Assembly (NCBI GenBank): GCA_964639285.1 | Contig: CAZXCI010000001.1 | Span: forward strand, 142,305-206,304 | DNA: 64,000 bases | Origin: an uncultured Candidatus Saccharibacteria bacterium | GTDB lineage: Bacteria; Patescibacteriota; Minisyncoccia; Phycocordibacterales; XYD1-FULL-46-19 | Reading direction: 5' to 3' | Shown: piece by piece, positions 4,665 to 62,020 of the stretch | How positions within the stretch are numbered: position 1 is the stretch's first letter | How the letters are laid out: each line of letters begins with the position of its first letter | Translations under genes and position numbers: made by a program | The notes under the pieces: generated by a model | Database searches by the model: none | The model's input: the letters and a program-made list of their open reading frames with translations, nothing else | Told to the model about the DNA's origin: nothing

Positions 4665-5116
4665 CTACGAGAGGTAGCCAAAAACACGTTGTAAAATAAA
4701 GAGAAAAAATAGGTTCCGATGAATAGAAAAAGTTTTTACTACTTTTGTGTAGAGATGATTTTACTATCATTAATTACTTCAATTGCTTTAAAATTAAACT
4801 GGTTATTATAAACCCAAACCCCGATAAGATAGAAGCAATATCATAAGATAAGATACTTCCATTATCAATGATATTTATTAACCCATTGAATATTAAAAGA
4901 CCGGCGATAATAAATAATAAAATAATGAATAGTTTGTTCATTTATATTTTATCTAAAACTTATATAATTATATTTTGCCACAATCTCTTAAAAAATTCGA
5001 GTGTCTTATTTGAAAGAGGGATACAAAATAACCCCCGCTTTAAGGGCTATTTTAGTCTGCTAGCAAAATGCTAGCAATGGCTCCGTTGGGTAGAGAGAGT
5101 TGGAACCTATTTTGTC

Positions 5117-5983
5117 TTATTCAGACGATAAAGTCGGGGTCGAGCCATTATCAAAAACGGTGATCTTTGTCGACTTGCTAATTATATCTGTAGGGCCAGT
5201 AATTCCTAGATCATTAAGTTTAAAGTCTTTGACCGTAATACTATTACCAATCAATGTCGCTCGAATAGTTCTATTTTTTGAACCGGCATCAACCTCAGCT
5301 CTAAGAGCAATATCTACCCATTTATCTTTGAAAAATCCAATGTAGAATTGTTTAAAATGAAAATCAATCCTGCCTGATTCTGAAATCATATCAGTATCTA
5401 ATATTGAGACCCCAGGCTGATCGTCAACAATCTCTATCTTAAAGTTGCGAAATAAATCGGGATCGTAATTTTCAACGTTAAAACTCAAAGTGTGAAGCAT
5501 AATATCCTGATGTGGCCTTAAACTGAAGTTTCCCAAAATGATATTGTTACCCGTTGGGGATATTTTAAAAGTTTGAGTCGGCTCCTGATTTGGACTTAGT
5601 CGTGTATCTACTATAACTAAATTGGTGGCGCTTTCATTTGAAGCGTCGACCGAACTTGTTTGAATCATTGGTTTCTGATCTAAAACTTTAGGAGTTGTTT
5701 CTTTTTTTTCAGCACTATTCTTCTTTTGAGAATAGGTCTCTGTTTGATCTATGTCTTGAGGTGTTTCTGTGGGATTCCTTAAATCTTGATCTATGGGTTC
5801 CTTAACCTTTGTCTGTTGACTTTTTGATCCTATCGCTGGGGTAGTAGAGGCAATAGGAAAAATTTTTCCTTTGAAGAAAAAACTTGAGAAGATATTCCAA
5901 GAAAGGGGATTCCACCAAGAGGCATTAGTTAAAAAGGGGATAGAAACAATTAATAAAAGGAAAATTATTGATATCTTTTTCAT
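5117..5983 (-). CDS. hypothetical secreted protein (288 aa, signal peptide)
   Basis: N-terminal MKKISIIFLLLIVSIPFLTNA signal-like segment; conserved promoter and 3' flank elements. Confidence 0.55.
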   Translation of the reverse strand: MKKISIIFLLLIVSIPFLTNASWWNPLSWNIFSSFFFKGKIFPIASTTPAIGSKSQQTKVKEPIDQDLRNPTETPQDIDQTETYSQKKNSAEKKETTPKVLDQKPMIQTSSVDASNESATNLVIVDTRLSPNQEPTQTFKISPTGNNIILGNFSLRPHQDIMLHTLSFNVENYDPDLFRNFKIEIVDDQPGVSILDTDMISESGRIDFHFKQFYIGFFKDKWVDIALRAEVDAGSKNRTIRATLIGNSITVKDFKLNDLGITGPTDIISKSTKITVFDNGSTPTLSSE

Positions 5984-7456: not shown

Positions 7457-7990
7457 TTATTTTTTATAAAAACTATTATCAGATGCCGTAATCTGTATCA
7501 ACGCATTTCGAAGTGATTCTTCGAGACTGACCTCTCTTAAGATTGCTCCCCCAGAATATGTCCCCCAAGTATCATTTGGAAGTTTTCCAAATTCTTCCTC
7601 AATTAAATGCATAACATCACAGTGCTCCATTTTAAGTTCGTTCATTTTCTGGAGAATATAATCGGGTACCTTTAAACCGCTTGAGTATCCATAGAATTCC
7701 TTTCCATTTTTATCAATTATGGCTGTCCAAGCTTCCTCGTAAATATGTCCATAACGCTCAATTAGGCCACTTTCAAGCCCAATAAAAAAGTCAGCACCAG
7801 GCTCAGTGTTCTTAGCACCTAACGCTCGATTTCTTGATCCGTCGTAGGTTTGTTTATCGTAAGGGGTATCTGGTACTTTTGAATCTGAAGGACAACCCTC
7901 AACAGACACTGGCCCAGTGAATAATTGACTCACGACTTTTTGAGTAATTAAAATTTTTCTATCACTGGTTGAACCAAGAATAATTCTCAT
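7457..7990 (-). CDS. yjjX: non-canonical purine NTP pyrophosphatase, YjjX/DUF84 family (inosine/xanthosine triphosphatase)
   Basis: VSVEGCPSDSKVPDTPY...GSRNRALGA...ADFFIGLESG matches the YjjX signature block (AVESGVPEQPFG...GARNRV...ADFWVAIEAG). Confidence 0.7.
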   Translation of the reverse strand: MRIILGSTSDRKILITQKVVSQLFTGPVSVEGCPSDSKVPDTPYDKQTYDGSRNRALGAKNTEPGADFFIGLESGLIERYGHIYEEAWTAIIDKNGKEFYGYSSGLKVPDYILQKMNELKMEHCDVMHLIEEEFGKLPNDTWGTYSGGAILREVSLEESLRNALIQITASDNSFYKK

Positions 7991-8027
7991 GGCGTAATTC
8001 TATCAAATTTCGAATTAAAGTTCGAAC

Positions 8028-8064
8028 GTCCCTGCCCGCATTGCTATGCAAAGCGTTGCAGGCG
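8028..8064. repeat. GC-rich hairpin element 'core A', copy 2
   Basis: identical 37-mer to 4628..4664. Confidence 0.6.
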
Positions 8065-8164
8065 GGTCTACTCGGGGTACAAAAACAACCCTTATTTTAA
8101 GGGCTATTTTCACGAGCTCCGATGGATACATAAAGTTCGAACCACACTTATCTTTTCATAAACA

Positions 8165-8217
8165 ACAAACCCGCCTCACAACTGACAGCGGGTTGCTGTG
8201 GTTGTGGGCGGGGCTAG
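8165..8217 (-). terminator. terminator-like GC hairpin repeat (paralogue of 6893..6952) overlapping the stop of ORF 8214..8525
   Basis: AAACCCGCC...GGGCGGGGCTAGTCGAC; supplies the V-D-stop end of the upstream ORF. Confidence 0.5.
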
Positions 8218-8525
8218 TCGACAAGCGACCAGTCGATTTTGGCGAAGATGTCTTTGGTATCATACTCGCCATTTCCGCACATCATCAGGAAGAACGGAAG
8301 GAGGCTGGTGAGTTTCTCGGGATCGGCTTCGACCGTCTGGATGAACAATGTGCGTGTCAGGCAGGTATAACTCCCGTCACTGGAACCGGTGTACTTGCCA
8401 CTTGGCACGTGCACAGCCCTAACGAGTTCACCCCTGATTTCCTCTCGGCGTTCTTTCGAACAAGTCGGCGAGGAAGCCTCGATAACGAGATTCTTGATTG
8501 TTTGCTGGGACAACTTGCTAGCCAT
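8214..8525 (-). CDS. hypothetical protein (103 aa), second gene of a GC-richer two-gene module
   Basis: ORF track; about 50 % GC versus about 36 % in the neighbouring cassette genes; start overlaps the end of 8518..8841 by 8 nt. Confidence 0.4.
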   Translation of the reverse strand: MASKLSQQTIKNLVIEASSPTCSKERREEIRGELVRAVHVPSGKYTGSSDGSYTCLTRTLFIQTVEADPEKLTSLLPFFLMMCGNGEYDTKDIFAKIDWSLVD

Positions 8526-8841
8526 GACACATTTCCTTCTTGTCGGTTAAGCCAAGAAAGCCCAGCAATTTCTCGCGCCGTCTCTCGTCTTTAGCCAACA
8601 GTTCACGATCGTACGAGATGATCTGACGACGATGGTCGTGACGATCTAGCTCGAACTCCGATCCGTAGTCAACGGCACTGTCGTGGATCGAATTGTTCAA
8701 CCTCTCGCCGTGTTCAATCTCTTTGGTAAGCGTGGCAATTTGCCGATCCAAGAAAGCAAGTTCTTTTTGCCACTTGGCTCTCCTCCGTTCCTTCCACCTC
8801 TCAATCCAAACACGAAGAAACCACATCTTTCTATCCTCCAT
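8518..8841 (-). CDS. hypothetical charged/coiled-coil protein (107 aa)
   Basis: ORF track; Arg/Glu-rich; overlapping arrangement with 8214..8525. Confidence 0.4.
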   Translation of the reverse strand: MEDRKMWFLRVWIERWKERRRAKWQKELAFLDRQIATLTKEIEHGERLNNSIHDSAVDYGSEFELDRHDHRRQIISYDRELLAKDERRREKLLGFLGLTDKKEMCHG

Positions 8842-8920
8842 GGGTTAGACTCCAGTTTTCAACACAAAAACACTCTATCTATAATGTTAGCATATATAGA
8901 TAAATATGTCAATACCTTGC

Positions 8921-8992
8921 TCCGCGGGTAGGACTCGAACCTACGACCAACCCGTTAACAGCGGGCCGCTCTACCAACTGAGCTACCGCGGA
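8921..8992 (-). tRNA. tRNA-Asn (anticodon GTT)
   Basis: cloverleaf from the reverse complement: acceptor UCCGCGG/CCGCGGA, D-arm GCUC..GAGC, anticodon stem-loop GCCCG-CUGUUAA-CGGGU (U33, GUU, A37), T-arm GUAGG-UUCGAGU-CCUAC; CCA not encoded. Confidence 0.9.
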
Positions 8993-9061
8993 ATCTATAA
9001 ATTCTAAATGAACACGGCCTTCCAATTGAGGCTCCTAAATTTTAACAAAAATAATACAAAA

Positions 9062-9075
9062 TGCAATATTGCATA
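9062..9075 (+). promoter_or_regulatory. perfect 14-bp palindrome ATGCAATATTGCAT overlapping the extended -10 (TGCATAAT) of the ECF sigma gene
   Basis: read directly from the sequence; operator-like position. Confidence 0.35.
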
Positions 9076-9095
9076 ATTTGTGATTAAATGATCCA

Positions 9096-9641
9096 ATGGA
9101 AAAAAAGGAAGAATTGACGATTGAGAGGATTGTCAAAGAGTATCTAGCAATAATTTACCGTTTTGCCTATCGCTTGACGGGGGACGAAGCTGACGCCAGG
9201 GACATTGCTCAGGAGGTAATGGTGAAGGTCTGGAAGAATTTAGATAGGTTCGACGAGAATCAGGGCTTCAAGCCCTGGCTCTTCAAAATTGCTCGAAATA
9301 CGGCTATTGATTGGCTTAGGCGACGCCGGCAAATTCCTTTTAGTCAACTAGCTTCTACTGACGAAGAGGGGAATCAAAAAGATTTTTCTGAAAATATTGC
9401 CGACTTGGAATTATTACCGGACGAGATTTTTGCTCAGTCGGAGGTTAAGGAAAAGTTCAAACAGGCTCTTGGGGCGGTCCCCTTAGCCGAGAGAGAAATT
9501 CTCGTTCTTCATTTAGAAGAGGGGTTAACTTTTGATGAAATCTCTAAGATCGTAAAACGGCCTCTTAACACGGTGAAGAGTATTTACCGGCGATCTCTCT
9601 TTAGGTTGAGGGCCCTCTTGGTTGAAATTGCACCAAAATAG
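9096..9641 (+). CDS. RNA polymerase sigma-70 factor, ECF subfamily
   Basis: region 2 (ARDIAQEVMVKVWKNLDRFD...FKPWLFKIARNTAIDWLRRRR) and region 4 HTH (LAEREILVLHLEEGLTFDEISKIV). Confidence 0.85.
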   Translation: MEKKEELTIERIVKEYLAIIYRFAYRLTGDEADARDIAQEVMVKVWKNLDRFDENQGFKPWLFKIARNTAIDWLRRRRQIPFSQLASTDEEGNQKDFSENIADLELLPDEIFAQSEVKEKFKQALGAVPLAEREILVLHLEEGLTFDEISKIVKRPLNTVKSIYRRSLFRLRALLVEIAPK

Positions 9642-14639: not shown

Positions 14640-15512
14640 ATGGTTAACAGAAATAATCATCTGGTTTTTGAGTGGATTGTTAGCATCGCTTTATTTATAG
14701 CTGTGATTGCAATTGGTGTTGGTGGTTATTTTTTCTGGCAACTCGATCTTAAGAATAAAGAGTTATTAGAATCTAAGAAAGATTTAGAAAATAAGCTAGC
14801 TATTTCGCAAAATAATTTAGCCACGACAACCAATGCTCTCCAGGAAGAACGGACGAGGAACGACGCTTTTGCTAATCAATTGAGTGGTCTGGCCACGACC
14901 GTGGGGACACTTGATAAGTTGAGTAAAACTGATCGCGAATTACTGAAGAAATATTCTAAGATCTATTTTCTTAGTGAAAATTATATTCCTTCTAATCTGG
15001 CGACAATTACTCCTCAATATCTATTTGATCCCGAGAAGTCTCTCTTGATCCATGCTAGTGTCTTGCCCAAGTTAGAGAGCCTGATTCGATCGGCGTCCTC
15101 AGTTGGCATTACTCTGCAAATTAACTCTGCCTACCGTTCTTTTGGAACTCAGGAGGCACTTAAATATAATTACTCAGTTACTTATGGAGCAGGGACGGCT
15201 AATAAATTTTCGGCCGATCAGGGTTATTCGGAGCATCAACTCGGGACAACCATTGATTTTGGGACCCCAAGTATCAAGGGAGATCTTTCGAAGTTTGGTA
15301 AAACTGACGCTTATAATTGGTTAACAAACAATGCCTATCGTTTTGGTTTCGTTCTGTCCTACCCCGAGGATAATGATTACTATCAATATGAACCTTGGCA
15401 TTGGCGCTATGTTGGGGTAGCCTTGGCAACAAAACTTCATTTTGACAAACTTCATTTCTACGATTTTCCCCAGAGGTTGATTGATCAGTTTTTGGTAAAC
15501 ATTTTCGATTAG
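14640..15512 (+). CDS. D-alanyl-D-alanine carboxypeptidase, peptidase M15B (VanY-like), membrane anchored
   Basis: LAS-family motifs SEHQLGTTIDF (SxHxxGxAxD) and EPWHWRY; N-terminal TM plus coiled coil. Confidence 0.75.
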   Translation: MVNRNNHLVFEWIVSIALFIAVIAIGVGGYFFWQLDLKNKELLESKKDLENKLAISQNNLATTTNALQEERTRNDAFANQLSGLATTVGTLDKLSKTDRELLKKYSKIYFLSENYIPSNLATITPQYLFDPEKSLLIHASVLPKLESLIRSASSVGITLQINSAYRSFGTQEALKYNYSVTYGAGTANKFSADQGYSEHQLGTTIDFGTPSIKGDLSKFGKTDAYNWLTNNAYRFGFVLSYPEDNDYYQYEPWHWRYVGVALATKLHFDKLHFYDFPQRLIDQFLVNIFD

Positions 15513-15518
15513 GCCGAC

Positions 15519-15527
15519 TGTGGATAA
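15519..15527 (-). promoter_or_regulatory. perfect DnaA box (TGTGGATAA, reverse complement TTATCCACA)
   Basis: exact 9-mer consensus; one of three in the window. Confidence 0.4.
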
Positions 15528-15533
15528 CTTTTC

Positions 15534-15561
15534 TTGTTTTTGATTGGGACGATGGTATAAT
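15534..15561 (+). promoter_or_regulatory. sigma-70-type promoter (TTGTTT, 16-nt spacer, TGgTATAAT extended -10)
   Basis: read from the sequence; drives the downstream structured transcript. Confidence 0.45.
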
Positions 15562-15567
15562 CTTAAT

Positions 15568-15682
15568 GAGGTTAAGGATATTGACGGTCGTACTGTAAGG
15601 GAAAACCAATCAATTGTAATAATATTGATATTTATCCTTAGCCTCACAGAGAACCGTACGTTTTGGACGTAGGGTTTTTTGT
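15568..15682 (+). ncRNA. candidate small RNA or leader RNA: 78-nt stem-loop plus intrinsic terminator
   Basis: a 13-bp stem (GAGGTTAAGGATA / TATCCTTAGCCTC with one G-U pair) begins at the predicted transcription start; terminator CCGTACGT-TTGG-ACGTAGGG + TTTTTTGTTT at 15654..15682; the downstream gene has its own TGcTATAAT promoter at 15688..15696. Confidence 0.4.
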
Positions 15683-15731
15683 TTCTATGCTATAATTATC
15701 TAAGCTATTATAAGTTTTAATTAAAATTATT

Positions 15732-16115
15732 ATGTCAGGATATATCGCAAACATTGAGGAGAAGACTCAAGCCAACGATTATTTTCGCGAAGTTCTCTTC
15801 ACCGCGCCTCATTCTCAATTAGTCGTCATGAGTATTGCTCCCGGTGAAGATATCGGTGAGGAAGTTCACGACAAAGTTGATCAATTCTTAAGAGTCGAAT
15901 CAGGCGAGGGGAAGGCGATTCTCGATGGTGAGGAGACCGCTCTCAGTGACGGCTTCTGCGTTGTCGTCCCCGCTGGCGCTCGTCATAATCTTATCAACAC
16001 TTCAGCGACCGAAGCGCTTAAGCTCTACACTATCTATTCTCCGGCCAATCATCCCGATGGCACCATTCACAAGACCAAAGCCGAGGCCCTCGCCGACGAA
16101 GACGATCACGTTTAA
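15732..16115 (+). CDS. cupin-domain protein
   Basis: small beta-barrel pattern (LVVMSIAPGEDIGEEVH...GFCVVVPAGARH) typical of cupin_2 proteins. Confidence 0.6.
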   Translation: MSGYIANIEEKTQANDYFREVLFTAPHSQLVVMSIAPGEDIGEEVHDKVDQFLRVESGEGKAILDGEETALSDGFCVVVPAGARHNLINTSATEALKLYTIYSPANHPDGTIHKTKAEALADEDDHV

Positions 16116-16127
16116 TTCTTATAATCT

Positions 16128-17732
16128 ATGAGCAAAAGTTGGTTTATCAAATATCCTTTTGTTGTGTTTCTTTTTGTCGTTTTCTTCTTCCCTCTCTTCT
16201 CCCAAGCTTCCTCTTTCATCTCTACTGGTCTTCCCTGTAATGTCGACATCATCCCCGATGACAGCAATCGTTCCACTCTCGTCTATTGTCCCATCTGTCG
16301 AGACGAAGGCACCACCAAACTTAAATTAAAATGGGAGATAAATGACAGAAGTTTTACCAAACCTTTCTGTCAGGTTTCTTGTTCAAAAAGCGACGGCAAA
16401 AGTTGTGGTCTTTGGCATAGTAAAAACAAAGAGGGGATACTCAGTTCTGTTAACACTGACACCAGACTCAAACCCACCGATACCGTTTATCTAAGCAATG
16501 ACCAGCTTCCTCGTACCAGTACTTATAAATATCGGGTCGTCTGTCTGAGCACAGATGGATGCCCTAGTGGAGGGTGTTTCTCTACCAGCGCCTTGATTAC
16601 GGTATCTCCGGATTGTAGAGTACCGTGTGAAGTGCCGTTTGAGACGATTGCCACTGAGTTAGATGGCGAAGAGTGGAGTCTCAGCCGTTTTTTTAGAATT
16701 ACGATAACAGAAAAAGATCTCGCTAGTTGGGCCAATGACAAAACGGATCAAGATTCGCCTCTTAATATTGGTTCTGGCAATCAAGATGAGATTATCTCTT
16801 ATCTGATACAAACTCAAAATGGCTCCTATTCTCCAAAGAGTTCTTTGGTCAAGAACAAAGAGACTGGGCCAACTTGTCCTGTCGGAAGAAGTGTCTACTT
16901 CAATTCAGAGATTCGATATTTAGACCATCTTGATTCAATATTTTTCTCTCAGAAACTTAAATCTTACGTTAATGATTATGGCTATCCGATACAATTAAAG
17001 GTCAGAAATAAGGACTGGGAAGTCTTTGCTTATGATGAATCTGAAAGTTTAGGTGAAGTGGCACATGCTGTTATTGTTATATTTATGGAGGATCTTACCG
17101 AAGACAATATGGAACCCTATTTTAATTTAAAAATTCTTGATCCGAATGTGCCTGAAGAAATTATCAGTCTCAAAAATTGTAAACCAGCTTATCTCTATAT
17201 CTCTTCGTCAGGGTATGAGACACATGAATTTGGGGGCTTTGGTTGCACTCCCGATAATGATTGGTATGGAGAAACGTTTTATGGAGAAGAAATTTTTGTC
17301 TATTCTAATACTTCATCTTGGGGTTCGGAGCCTAGCCTTACTTGGATTGACAAATACCATGAGTTCAAGACCAGTCTGTGTTATAGTGGGTCAGCTCAAT
17401 TTTATACAGACTTTTGCCAGAGGGGGAGACTGACTGATTGGTTAAAAAATAATTTAACTAAACTCCAAAATCCTAGTGATGGGGGAGGTAATTGTTACGC
17501 TTGGACCATGTTTATGCTAAAGGTCGCTTATTTTGGCGACTTTGTTGGTACTGACTACCATCCCAACGATGGTAAATATGTCGGGGTTGACTGCGATGCT
17601 AACCATTATCCCATTACTAAAAAAACCAGCTTTCTCCCCGCCACACCTTGGGCTCTCTTAAGGTCTGGCGAGGGGAAGGAGGGTTGGATGGCGAACATCC
17701 TTGGACCGTTGGAAAATTTTAAGTTTAGGTAG
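16128..17732 (+). CDS. Cys-rich secreted protein (534 aa), possible C-terminal papain-like thiol-peptidase fold
   Basis: N-terminal signal/TM; more than 20 Cys; GGGNCYAWTMFML motif followed by a downstream His (DCDANHYP). Confidence 0.55.
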   Translation: MSKSWFIKYPFVVFLFVVFFFPLFSQASSFISTGLPCNVDIIPDDSNRSTLVYCPICRDEGTTKLKLKWEINDRSFTKPFCQVSCSKSDGKSCGLWHSKNKEGILSSVNTDTRLKPTDTVYLSNDQLPRTSTYKYRVVCLSTDGCPSGGCFSTSALITVSPDCRVPCEVPFETIATELDGEEWSLSRFFRITITEKDLASWANDKTDQDSPLNIGSGNQDEIISYLIQTQNGSYSPKSSLVKNKETGPTCPVGRSVYFNSEIRYLDHLDSIFFSQKLKSYVNDYGYPIQLKVRNKDWEVFAYDESESLGEVAHAVIVIFMEDLTEDNMEPYFNLKILDPNVPEEIISLKNCKPAYLYISSSGYETHEFGGFGCTPDNDWYGETFYGEEIFVYSNTSSWGSEPSLTWIDKYHEFKTSLCYSGSAQFYTDFCQRGRLTDWLKNNLTKLQNPSDGGGNCYAWTMFMLKVAYFGDFVGTDYHPNDGKYVGVDCDANHYPITKKTSFLPATPWALLRSGEGKEGWMANILGPLENFKFR

Positions 17733-17921: not shown

Positions 17922-18191
17922 ATGAATAATAAGTTGTTTGTCGGTAGCTTGCCTTGGGCGCTTACTGATCAAGAGTTAGGCAATCATTTTGCCTCTGCTG
18001 GTCAAGTTCTCTCGGCTAAGATCATCATCGACAAGGCGTCTGGTCGCTCCAAGGGCTTCGGTTTTGTGGAGATGTCTACGCCGGAGGAAGCGCAAAACGC
18101 TATCTCTACCTTAAATGGTTCTGACCTTGGTGGTCGCTCAATCAGTGTTGATTTTGCTAAGCCAATGGAGCCTCGCGATAATCGCAACTAG
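17922..18191 (+). CDS. RNA-binding protein with RRM domain
   Basis: RNP-2 KLFVGSL and RNP-1 KGFGFVEM. Confidence 0.85.
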   Translation: MNNKLFVGSLPWALTDQELGNHFASAGQVLSAKIIIDKASGRSKGFGFVEMSTPEEAQNAISTLNGSDLGGRSISVDFAKPMEPRDNRN

Positions 18192-18238: not shown

Positions 18239-18277
18239 TGTTTGCCTTTTTGCCTTCAATCGTTATACTGTAATAAT

Positions 18278-18832
18278 ATGATAGAAGAAGAGAAAAATCT
18301 TGCCCGACGCTTGTTTATTGCCCTCCCAGTGGAAGGATCTCTGAGGAGTGATGCTCTCACTTGGCAGGCTGACCATGTCGCTTGGCCGGTATCTTGGCTC
18401 TCAGGGGAGAGTTTCCATATTACCGTTGTTGCTCCCTGGCTGGAGACTGATGTTGACTTGATTATTAGGAAATTAGATGAATTCGCTAGTAAACCTCGCA
18501 ACACTTTCTTCATTGATTTTAATAAGGTAGTTTTTGGTCCTAACCGTCAAACGCCTCGACTTGTCTGGGCTGAGGGTAACCCACCTCAATCTCTGCTCAA
18601 ACTTAAAGATGATATCGAGGTAACTCTCAATCGGCCTGACCCCCGTTTCTATCGTTTGCACTTAACTCTAGCTCGCTTCAAAGCGCCAGATTTTGGTCCA
18701 ACTTTGCCGAACCTCTATGACCGAGTAGATTGGGGCGGGGAGATTAAAGGTTTTACCTTGATCGAATCGACCATGACTCCCGACGGTCCCACTTATACCA
18801 AAATCAAAGATTTTTCTTTTGCCGGCTTATAA
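18278..18832 (+). CDS. thpR: RNA 2',3'-cyclic phosphodiesterase (2H phosphoesterase, LigT/ThpR)
   Basis: two H-x-T-x motifs (FHITVV and LHLTLA); the start is probably the internal Met (MIEEEK) rather than 18242. Confidence 0.7.
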   Translation: MIEEEKNLARRLFIALPVEGSLRSDALTWQADHVAWPVSWLSGESFHITVVAPWLETDVDLIIRKLDEFASKPRNTFFIDFNKVVFGPNRQTPRLVWAEGNPPQSLLKLKDDIEVTLNRPDPRFYRLHLTLARFKAPDFGPTLPNLYDRVDWGGEIKGFTLIESTMTPDGPTYTKIKDFSFAGL

Positions 18833-22851: not shown

Positions 22852-23625
22852 ATGACCATTATAGCATCAATTATCCTAGGAATAGTAGAGGGGGTGACTG
22901 AGTTCCTACCTATTTCATCCACCGGACACCTGACTTTAACAGTTGACCTTTTGGGTATTGCTCAGACGGAATTTGTGAAGAGTTTTGAAGTGATCATCCA
23001 GCTGGGGGCAATTTTGGCTGTTGTTGCTCTCTATTGGCAGAAACTTTTGACCAACACTGCTGTCCTTAAACGAGTTATCGTTGCCTTTTTGCCGACAGCG
23101 ATCTTGGGTTTGACCTTCTATAAAGTGATCAAGACTTATCTCTTGGGCAATAGCCTTGTTGTTCTTATCTCCTTGTTTGTTGGCGGTTTAATTTTGATTC
23201 TCTTTGAACTTTTCTACCAAGAGAAGGACGATGACAAAGTTGACCTCGAACAAATATCTTATCCACAGGCCATTGCCCTTGGCCTTTGTCAGTCAATAGC
23301 CATGATCCCCGGTGTTTCTCGTTCGGCGGCAACGATTGTTGGGGGCTTGGCTTTGAGGATTAGACGAGAGACTATTGTTGAATTTTCTTTTTTGTTGGCG
23401 GTACCGACCATGGCAGCGGCGACCGGTTTAGACATCCTTAAGAGCTCTTTTGGTTTTTCTGCGGGGGAGTGGGGCTTGCTGACTTTGGGCTTCTTTGTTT
23501 CTTTTCTTTCTGCTCTGTTGGCTATTAAATCATTCTTAAATTATGTCCGCCATCACGATTTTATTGCCTTTGGCCTCTACCGAATTGTTATTGCCCTCGT
23601 TTTTCTCTCTATTTTCTTTGTGTGA
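22852..23625 (+). CDS. uppP: undecaprenyl-diphosphatase
   Basis: N-terminal signature GVTEFLPISSTGHL and a multi-TM profile. Confidence 0.9.
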   Translation: MTIIASIILGIVEGVTEFLPISSTGHLTLTVDLLGIAQTEFVKSFEVIIQLGAILAVVALYWQKLLTNTAVLKRVIVAFLPTAILGLTFYKVIKTYLLGNSLVVLISLFVGGLILILFELFYQEKDDDKVDLEQISYPQAIALGLCQSIAMIPGVSRSAATIVGGLALRIRRETIVEFSFLLAVPTMAAATGLDILKSSFGFSAGEWGLLTLGFFVSFLSALLAIKSFLNYVRHHDFIAFGLYRIVIALVFLSIFFV

Positions 23626-45667: not shown

Positions 45668-45676
45668 TTATCCACA
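45668..45676 (+). promoter_or_regulatory. perfect DnaA box TTATCCACA upstream of mraZ
   Basis: exact consensus 9-mer; preceded by the core-B-like 13-mer CTCACTCCGTTCG. Confidence 0.4.
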
Positions 45677-62011: not shown

Positions 62012-62020
62012 TGTGGATAA
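62012..62020 (-). promoter_or_regulatory. perfect DnaA box (TGTGGATAA)
   Basis: exact 9-mer; the third copy in the window. Confidence 0.35.

Follow-up and report, generated by a model that had tools for sequence, protein, structure and literature searches.

A predicted stand-alone structured RNA gene with a conserved DnaA box in Paceibacterota

Stand-alone small RNA (sRNA) genes of bacteria are generally built of a sigma-70 promoter, a structured body and a Rho-independent terminator, whose hairpin forms the 3' end of an RNA of 50-300 nt, and they lie between genes and are independent of their neighbours. Here we describe a predicted gene of the same layout, also intergenic, which is found upstream of a cupin gene in a 64-kb stretch of bacterial DNA (64,000 nt of contig CAZXCI010000001.1, assembly GCA_964639285.1; hereafter the window). 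We consider it very probable that this is an independent gene for a structured RNA of about 115 nt. In contrast to the generic sRNAs, the present RNA is almost wholly base-paired and has no conserved single-stranded seed. The closest cupin loci come from metagenome-assembled genomes (MAGs) of Candidatus Vogelbacteria and Paceibacterota, which belong to the Candidate Phyla Radiation (CPR; Patescibacteria), and the window is accordingly assigned to a CPR bacterium. Members of this group have very small genomes, in which few regulators are known and hardly any regulatory RNA has been characterised, and we know of no Hfq- or ProQ-type partner in these genomes.

Several described systems are close to the locus in one respect or another. 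sRNA-Xcc1, an sRNA of 88 nt, is located in integron cassettes of Xanthomonas and other Proteobacteria and often lies upstream of symE (PMC2996969; bioRxiv 10.1101/2025.06.18.660453). It is similar to the present RNA in forming a three-way junction of about 80-90 nt, in which the ends pair into the stem P1 and a GNRA-capped hairpin P2 is adjacent to a hairpin P3, and in occurring in variable contexts. The two differ in host phylum, in GC content and in the sequence of the conserved core; sRNA-Xcc1 is the nearest resemblance and not the family of the present RNA. The DnaA-controlled promoters of dnaA and mioC in E. coli and of gidA in P. aeruginosa (PMC13438810), where DnaA acts as a transcription factor, likewise have a consensus 9-mer next to the promoter core. 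However, they carry a pair or a cluster of boxes, whereas the promoter of the present RNA has just one, and its control by DnaA is a prediction. That a cell-cycle regulator can drive a regulatory non-coding RNA is demonstrated by CcnA of Caulobacter, which is cell-cycle-regulated (PMC8959179); CcnA is driven by CtrA, not by DnaA, and is unrelated to the present RNA in sequence and structure. Transcription-terminating riboswitches also consist of a P1-closed multi-helix domain followed by a terminator and stand upstream of a co-oriented gene. Unlike in these, P1 of the present RNA, at 13-15 bp, is very long, no antiterminator is conserved, a promoter lies between the terminator and the gene, and one member of the family is antisense. 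Our literature search found no description of this RNA, nor of a structured sRNA controlled by a DnaA box.

Comparison with relatives indicates that the RNA gene is real and conserved among Paceibacterota ("Vogelbacteria"-like) genomes and metagenomes. The relatives' loci compared with the window are labelled with L-numbers (L006, L070 etc.). Five contigs of the same population carry the element with 100% identity, and recognisable copies of the RNA precede the cupin orthologue in L006, L007 and L008. The diverged copy in L070 was detected with a covariance model based on four sequences, and the matches of the RNA to the covariance model score 115-126 bits. A context-free pattern scan of Joint Genome Institute (JGI) metagenomes gave 14 loci, 11 of them true members; the other three (L087, L088, L094) were rejected as chance matches within coding sequence. 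Look-ups of cupin homologues added five distinct members and three cupin loci lacking the RNA. In total, 14 distinct RNA sequences are available, every one on Paceibacterota-like contigs, and as far as sampled the predicted family is restricted to this clade.

The gene assignment is carried by the fold and its covariation. On the + strand the RNA folds with -45.7 kcal/mol, against -24.2±3.3 kcal/mol in 200 dinucleotide shuffles (z = -6.4, 0/200 as low), and the fold of the - strand is weaker (-28.3 kcal/mol). A preceding reading of the DNA without database searches (the sequence-only reading) had described a 13-bp stem closing a 52-nt loop. The stem, P1, is present with one U·G pair included, but the loop turns out to be two hairpins, P2 and P3, and the domain is a three-way junction. 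The conservation and covariation in relatives which that reading had proposed to look for are found in the 14 distinct homologues. In their alignment (an earlier version held nine sequences) 94.6% of the cells of the consensus structure form standard pairs. Compensatory changes, with both sides altered, are present in 19 of the 41 pairs, compared with 8.0±1.7 in shuffles (0/500 reach 19), and 51 cells carry both-side changes versus 12.6±3.3 in the shuffled sets. In the controls, where the 3' partner was slid by 1-3 columns, at most five pairs have both-side changes.

The helices contribute to this signal as follows. P1 comprises 15 consensus pairs, 8 of them compensatory, with 95.7% of the cells paired, and all sequences (14/14) keep the U·G pair of alignment columns 11/83. 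The outer pairs of P2 covary (AU 5, GC 5, GU 4), and the inner two are often non-canonical; the interior of this hairpin is purine-rich and non-canonical, P2 is the region of highest sequence conservation in the RNA, and its tetraloop is GUAA or GCAA in every member. The five pairs of P3 are formed in 100% of the 14 sequences, two of them with compensatory changes, and the P3 loop varies from 2 to ~11 nt. Conserved nucleotides are concentrated in the junction and P2, and the only sizeable loop, that of P3, varies freely. The terminator hairpin follows directly after P1 and has 15 consensus pairs, 6 of them compensatory. At one position of its A-tract/U-tract pairing seven sequences have A-U and five have U-A, which indicates that selection acts on the long form of this hairpin as well. 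The invariant U·G and G·U pairs (14/14) would be C-A mismatches on the other strand, which fixes the RNA to the + strand. Comparison of the homologues establishes in this way the gene boundaries, the strand and the secondary structure.

The same data bear on the idea that the element is a feature of the DNA with no RNA function, namely a palindromic repeat or miniature inverted-repeat transposable element (MITE), or the terminator of an upstream operon fused to the cupin promoter. A long inverted repeat (P1) does delimit the element, close relatives differ in whether they carry it at the same syntenic site, and in one metagenome contigs are broken at it as they would be at a repeat. Nevertheless, we regard this explanation as extremely improbable. 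The compensatory changes, those in the arms of P1 included, together with the invariant G·U pairs are the mark of selection at the RNA level on one strand and argue against a purely DNA-level palindrome. Furthermore, a promoter of conserved position starts exactly at P1, the element is single in the window, no further copies beyond the orthologous ones were found in ~0.56 Mb of related loci (88 sources), and blastn against 50,697 phage records, which could have revealed a phage origin, gave no match.

Every element of the promoter, stem-loop and terminator unit named by the sequence-only reading was located in its place by direct reading of the sequence (Table 1). As to the sigma-70-type promoter, its position is conserved: the -35 and -10 boxes occupy the same columns in at least eight homologues with a diverged spacer sequence, the -35 boxes of the homologues are TTGACA, TTGACC or TTGCCT in the same alignment column, and the -10 box is 6-7 nt before the first base of P1 in all homologues. 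The window's own -35 hexamer is a poorer match to the type, sharing just 3/6 positions with TTGACA, and for this reason the window promoter is not listed by a simple promoter scan, which does list TTGACA-17-TAAACT in L006 and TTGACA-16-TATCAT in L098. The terminator is likewise present and conserved with covariation, but it is less canonical than had been stated: one G·G mismatch interrupts the window copy, and a simple terminator scan does not list this copy but lists the homologous terminator in L098.

Table 1. Predicted features of the RNA unit and the adjoining cupin gene in the window
Feature	Coordinates	Strand	Remarks
DnaA box, perfect	15519-15527	TGTGGATAA on +, TTATCCACA on -	6 nt upstream of the -35 hexamer
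-35 hexamer TTGTTT of the RNA promoter	15534-15539	+	followed by a 16-nt spacer
Extended -10 TGgTATAAT of the RNA promoter	15553-15561	+	predicted start ~15567-15568
Predicted sRNA transcript, ~115 nt	15568-15684	+	three-way-junction domain, then terminator hairpin
P1-closed domain (78 nt)	15568-15645	+	P1: 15568-15580 paired with 15633-15645
P2, irregular hairpin with GNRA tetraloop GUAA at 15595-15598	15586-15607	+	
P3 hairpin UCAAU...AUUGA with a loop of variable length	15610-15628	+	
Intrinsic terminator	15646-15684	+	hairpin 15646-15682, T-run 15675-15680; A-rich 5' arm pairs with the U-tract
Extended -10 TGcTATAAT of the cupin gene	15688-15696	+	outside the RNA
Cupin_2 gene	15732-16115	+	Pfam PF07883, E = 1.4e-15; usual downstream neighbour of the RNA

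The downstream gene appears to be served by a promoter of its own. The motif TGnTATAAT is conserved between the RNA terminator and the downstream gene, and the cupin promoter that the sequence-only reading had recognised is retained even in orthologous loci lacking the RNA (L010, L011, L107), at the same distance from the ATG. L010 and L011 are as close as L006-L008, and their cupin promoter is kept as ATGyTATAAT. Independence of the cupin promoter is therefore established on the comparative level. In L090 (~5340-5360, -) and L093 (~5195-5213, -) the genes downstream of the RNA (HIT-like, EamA-like) start 8 nt past a TATAAT box. A start so close to the -10 box means that these genes probably give leaderless mRNAs, whose translation could not result from a read-through transcript. 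In L070 the RNA runs antisense to the genes on either side, which favours an independent gene. We note that in L006, L007 and L111 an insertion of ~80 nt sets the RNA terminator apart from the cupin promoter. At this place the same three loci have a GC-rich hairpin CGCCAGACC...GGTCTGGCG with a T-run (L006 2902-2960, L007 ~2900-2960, L111 2875-2945), which in the RNA-less L107 precedes the cupin promoter (~960-1010). This hairpin could serve as a second terminator or represent a small mobile palindrome.

A riboswitch or attenuator had been left as the alternative to an independent RNA. In that case the RNA would belong to the long 5' leader of the cupin(-Nramp-P-type ATPase) operon, with the P1 domain as the aptamer, perhaps for a metal ion, and the terminator as the expression platform. 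Such an arrangement would be in agreement with the RNA directly upstream of the cupin orthologue and co-oriented with it in 11 of the 14 distinct members, with the Nramp and P-type ATPase genes that follow the cupin gene in relatives, and with a terminator placed after conserved junction and P2 nucleotides. However, it appears very improbable to us. The antiterminator proposed between UCGUAC of the inner region and GUACG of the terminator 5' arm is a property of the window copy: the complementarity is strong there (-11.2 kcal/mol vs -5.9±2.0 shuffled) and at or below the shuffled level in the 8 other homologues (8/9 members). Folds of the nascent transcript leave the terminator 5' arm unpaired, and P1 of 13-15 bp (domain -18 to -28 kcal/mol) should require no ligand for its formation. 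The separate promoter after the terminator, the loci in which this promoter occurs with no RNA, the members that precede unrelated leaderless genes (L090, L093) or run antisense (L070), and the ~80-nt insertion all speak against a leader of the cupin operon as well. The independent RNA of ~115 nt is, on the other hand, supported by the conserved promoter position, P1, inner hairpins and terminator of the 14 homologues, and several traits of a stand-alone sRNA gene are found here: a positioned promoter, a terminator, one-strand covariation and independence of the neighbours.

The genomic context of the RNA is variable. Between close relatives the RNA may be present or absent at one syntenic site, and four cupin loci among them are RNA-less. 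Two inserted genes separate the RNA from the cupin gene in the L091/L104 lineage. In L070 the RNA is 1 kb downstream and on the other strand, opposite to both neighbours (genes for a PlsY-like membrane protein and a DEAD-box helicase). The gene 5' of the RNA differs by locus and encodes VanY, DUF5666, an AI-2E transporter, a peptidoglycan (PG)-binding protein or a truncated extracytoplasmic function (ECF) sigma fragment; downstream genes other than cupin encode EamA-like, HIT-like and secreted proteins, with one antisense. Since many loci were retrieved via the cupin gene, sampling is biased to cupin loci and the strength of the cupin linkage is uncertain. In the metagenome Ga0172379 four contigs end in or at the identical RNA (L090 5361-5484, -; L093 5214-5337, -; L095 12265-12355, +; L097 14462-14552, +), with two different upstream and two different downstream contexts. 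It follows that this population has at least two copies of the RNA, at which the assembly was broken as by a repeat. Comparison of all these contexts indicates that the RNA is accessory, occasionally duplicated or relocated, and usually though not always linked to cupin.

One further context is that of L086, where a 56-aa ECF sigma fragment lies directly upstream of the RNA (2256-2430, -). The fragment is 49% identical to residues 3-57 of the window open reading frame (ORF) 9096-9641, and its TGA overlaps the first bases of P1. Neither a promoter nor a DnaA box can be recognised for this RNA copy itself, which seems to be joined to the truncated sigma gene.

Varying contexts and at least two copies in one sample are also what would be expected if the RNA were a distant member of sRNA-Xcc1 (Rfam RF02221), the mobile integron-cassette three-way-junction sRNA introduced above. 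The most divergent homologue, L070, aligns with RF02221 end to end at 16.2 bits. The topology is the same: after P1 comes P2, which contains an internal loop and has a GNRA-capped tip with GAA after it, and P3 is last. In the L070 alignment the two share a core UACC-GNAA-GGGAA. Genuine sRNA-Xcc1 copies also lie ~40 nt upstream of co-oriented genes. We nonetheless judge this membership very improbable. The L070 score corresponds to E = 1.3 and falls well short of the gathering score of 53; an 89-nt query from the window copy has no match to RF02221 at E ≤ 10; and in the reciprocal search four genuine loci reach 5-6 bits with model R2, compared with 69-73 bits for Rfam. The conserved stretch AAUACAAUA of sRNA-Xcc1 has no counterpart in the present RNA, and neither symE nor an integrase or integron is seen within the compared loci. 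In general, no family of Rfam 15 reaches the gathering threshold, or comes close to it, for the window copy in a search that covered the whole window, and the matches of the RNA region at E ≤ 10 are due to chance (C0465, snoRNAs).

As regards sRNA-Xcc1 itself, two genuine copies on plasmids (L102 1182-1272, L103 1198-1280) end ~40 nt before a co-oriented gene at 1318, whose product is hypothetical in L102 and belongs to the BRO family in L103. From this arrangement the sRNA-Xcc1 family may be linked in cis to the downstream gene rather than act purely in trans.

We now return to the stand-alone RNA gene and its promoter. The perfect DnaA box reported upstream of it by the sequence-only reading is there and is conserved in relatives. 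The box is 49-50 nt before the first base of P1 and 5-6 nt upstream of the -35 box. A perfect box occurs in 9 of the 15 upstream contexts: directly and at the fixed offset in seven loci (the window, L106, L008, L091, L095, L108, L111), and as an inverted 9-mer a few bases farther upstream in two (L097, L115). L006 and L098 have a box with one mismatch. The block TGTGGATAACTTT(T)cTTGAC varies hardly at all in alignment A9, in which neither the sequence preceding it nor the promoter spacer can be aligned. L095 and L097 are identical in the RNA and in the promoter from the -35 box on and differ in the sequence upstream, and both have a perfect box. Retention of the box while its flanks and the spacer diverged is good comparative evidence that it is functional. 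As for frequencies, the window contains 4 perfect 9-mers against 0.45 expected, and among the 16 perfect boxes in ~583 kb of loci 6 precede the RNA. The protein that binds the box is presumably DnaA, as judged from the TTATCCACA consensus. We give about equal weight to control of the RNA promoter by DnaA and to its absence.

Other DnaA boxes were seen in the course of the comparison. The window has three further perfect ones, at 23259-23267 (+), 45668-45676 (+) and 62012-62020 (-), none of them arranged relative to a -35 box as at the RNA. In L070, ~200 nt upstream of the RNA (4720-4760, -), a perfect box is located in the divergent promoter region toward the DEAD-box helicase gene; beside it there is a one-mismatch box (TGTTGATAA), and the two flank a short hairpin (CCGACTTCGCAAGTCGG). 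An origin-like region is found elsewhere in the window. At ~7990-9100 the orientation of the genes switches, with ORFs on the - strand before 7990 and on the + strand from 8046, and the cumulative G-C curve has its minimum at 9057, near a tRNA gene (8920-8992, -) and the ECF sigma gene. No cluster of DnaA boxes that would point to an oriC near the RNA was found at this minimum.

The explanation that we consider best as a whole, and probably correct, is a stand-alone sRNA gene of Paceibacterota, with a promoter likely controlled by DnaA and an RNA that acts as a folded particle. We suggest that it would work in the following way.

Step 1: Transcription would begin from the sigma-70-type promoter at the first base of the 13-15 bp P1. 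DnaA, bound to the box 6 nt upstream of the -35 hexamer, would modulate this promoter, the replication initiator thus serving as a regulator.

Step 2: P1 would close the three-way junction with the irregular, purine-rich, GNRA-capped P2 and the short P3 with its variable loop. The long hairpin with the U-tract right after P1 would end the transcript, and the downstream gene would be transcribed from its own promoter.

Step 3: The compact RNA would act as a folded particle, which binds a protein or another ligand, and not via an extended antisense seed. This is the least certain step of the three. We infer it from the conserved nucleotides of the junction and P2 together with the free variation of the P3 loop, and action through protein or ligand binding instead of antisense pairing is to be taken as a tentative suggestion, open to considerable doubt.

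Several points weigh against this explanation. Three of the 15 upstream contexts (L007, L109, L086) have no DnaA box at all, and a single DnaA box is a weak DnaA site in well-studied bacteria. Transcription, the RNA ends, the binding and regulation by DnaA and the mode of action are predicted from sequence, and the protein or ligand partner of the RNA is hypothetical. Finally, the RNA is mostly next to the cupin gene and in the same direction, which could mean a cis or local function; yet the retrieval was biased to cupin, and nearly all genes in this region share one strand.

Other readings of the region were tried and rejected. Pairing of the inner region in antisense to the translation-initiation region of the cupin gene gives z from -0.4 to +1.9 in 11 loci. 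A peptide gene is contradicted by the unconserved AUG at 15566 and by indels in the P3 loop that are not multiples of three; likewise, a 42-aa ORF with a TTG start (15544-15672) is unconserved and begins upstream of the predicted transcription start. The sequence GGATAAC was considered as an ECF-sigma promoter, and alignment A9 has no conserved -10-like CGT at the right distance. By inspection, GATAAC has no palindromic partner that would make it a Fur-family box, and the GTTRRRY and RYYYAAC-like ends of a possible attC-like recombination site are in reversed order. The core motifs of a hammerhead and of 5S rRNA are absent, with no Rfam match to either, and no tRNA or tmRNA was detected in the RNA region.

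In the window the RNA occupies the intergenic space 15513-15731, between the gene for a VanY-type D-Ala-D-Ala carboxypeptidase (14640-15512, +) and the Cupin_2 gene. On the 5' side are genes for the ECF sigma factor, HlyD, an ABC ATPase, a MacB/FtsX permease, DUF5666 and VanY, and on the 3' side those for the cupin, a 534-aa protein with no Pfam match, an RRM protein and a LigT-like protein. The cupin gene lacks a Shine-Dalgarno sequence. Its orthologue in relatives (at ~3001; at 1048 in L107) is followed by an Nramp transporter gene (L104, L107, L108, L109, L115), and in L107, L108 and L109 by a P-type ATPase gene too, which suggests that cupin, Nramp and P-type ATPase form a metal-homeostasis cluster. 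The 534-aa protein of the window, which is cysteine-rich and secreted (16128-17732), is encoded in the place of Nramp and the ATPase. A motif ATTATTAR is found ~10-14 nt past the cupin -10 box in the window (within 15697-15731), L006-L011, L086, L098 and L106-L115, with or without the RNA, and in L108 it is a perfect palindrome, GCTAATTATTAGC. This motif may serve as an operator, perhaps one bound by a regulator of the Fur family. The RRM_1 gene (17922-18191 in the window) and the gene for the LigT-like 2',5'-RNA-ligase/cyclic phosphodiesterase (18242-18832) are kept a few kb downstream of cupin in L006, L011, L106, L113 and L115, some of which are RNA-less.

A broader reading would make the RNA a new class of structured CPR sRNA, which is controlled by DnaA and reports the status of replication initiation, perhaps as a particle tied to the cupin-Nramp-P-type ATPase metal-homeostasis cluster; we regard this as rather unlikely. 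The finding would establish no new principle, as stand-alone sRNAs and DnaA-controlled promoters are both already known. It does provide, for the CPR, a lineage-specific structured sRNA as a concrete candidate for an Rfam entry and for transcript mapping. The frequent linkage to cupin, Nramp and P-type ATPase genes is a second lead that can be tested, next to the first one, which is the DnaA box: conserved in either orientation, it makes testable the proposal that in these bacteria the replication initiator may double as the regulator of an RNA gene.

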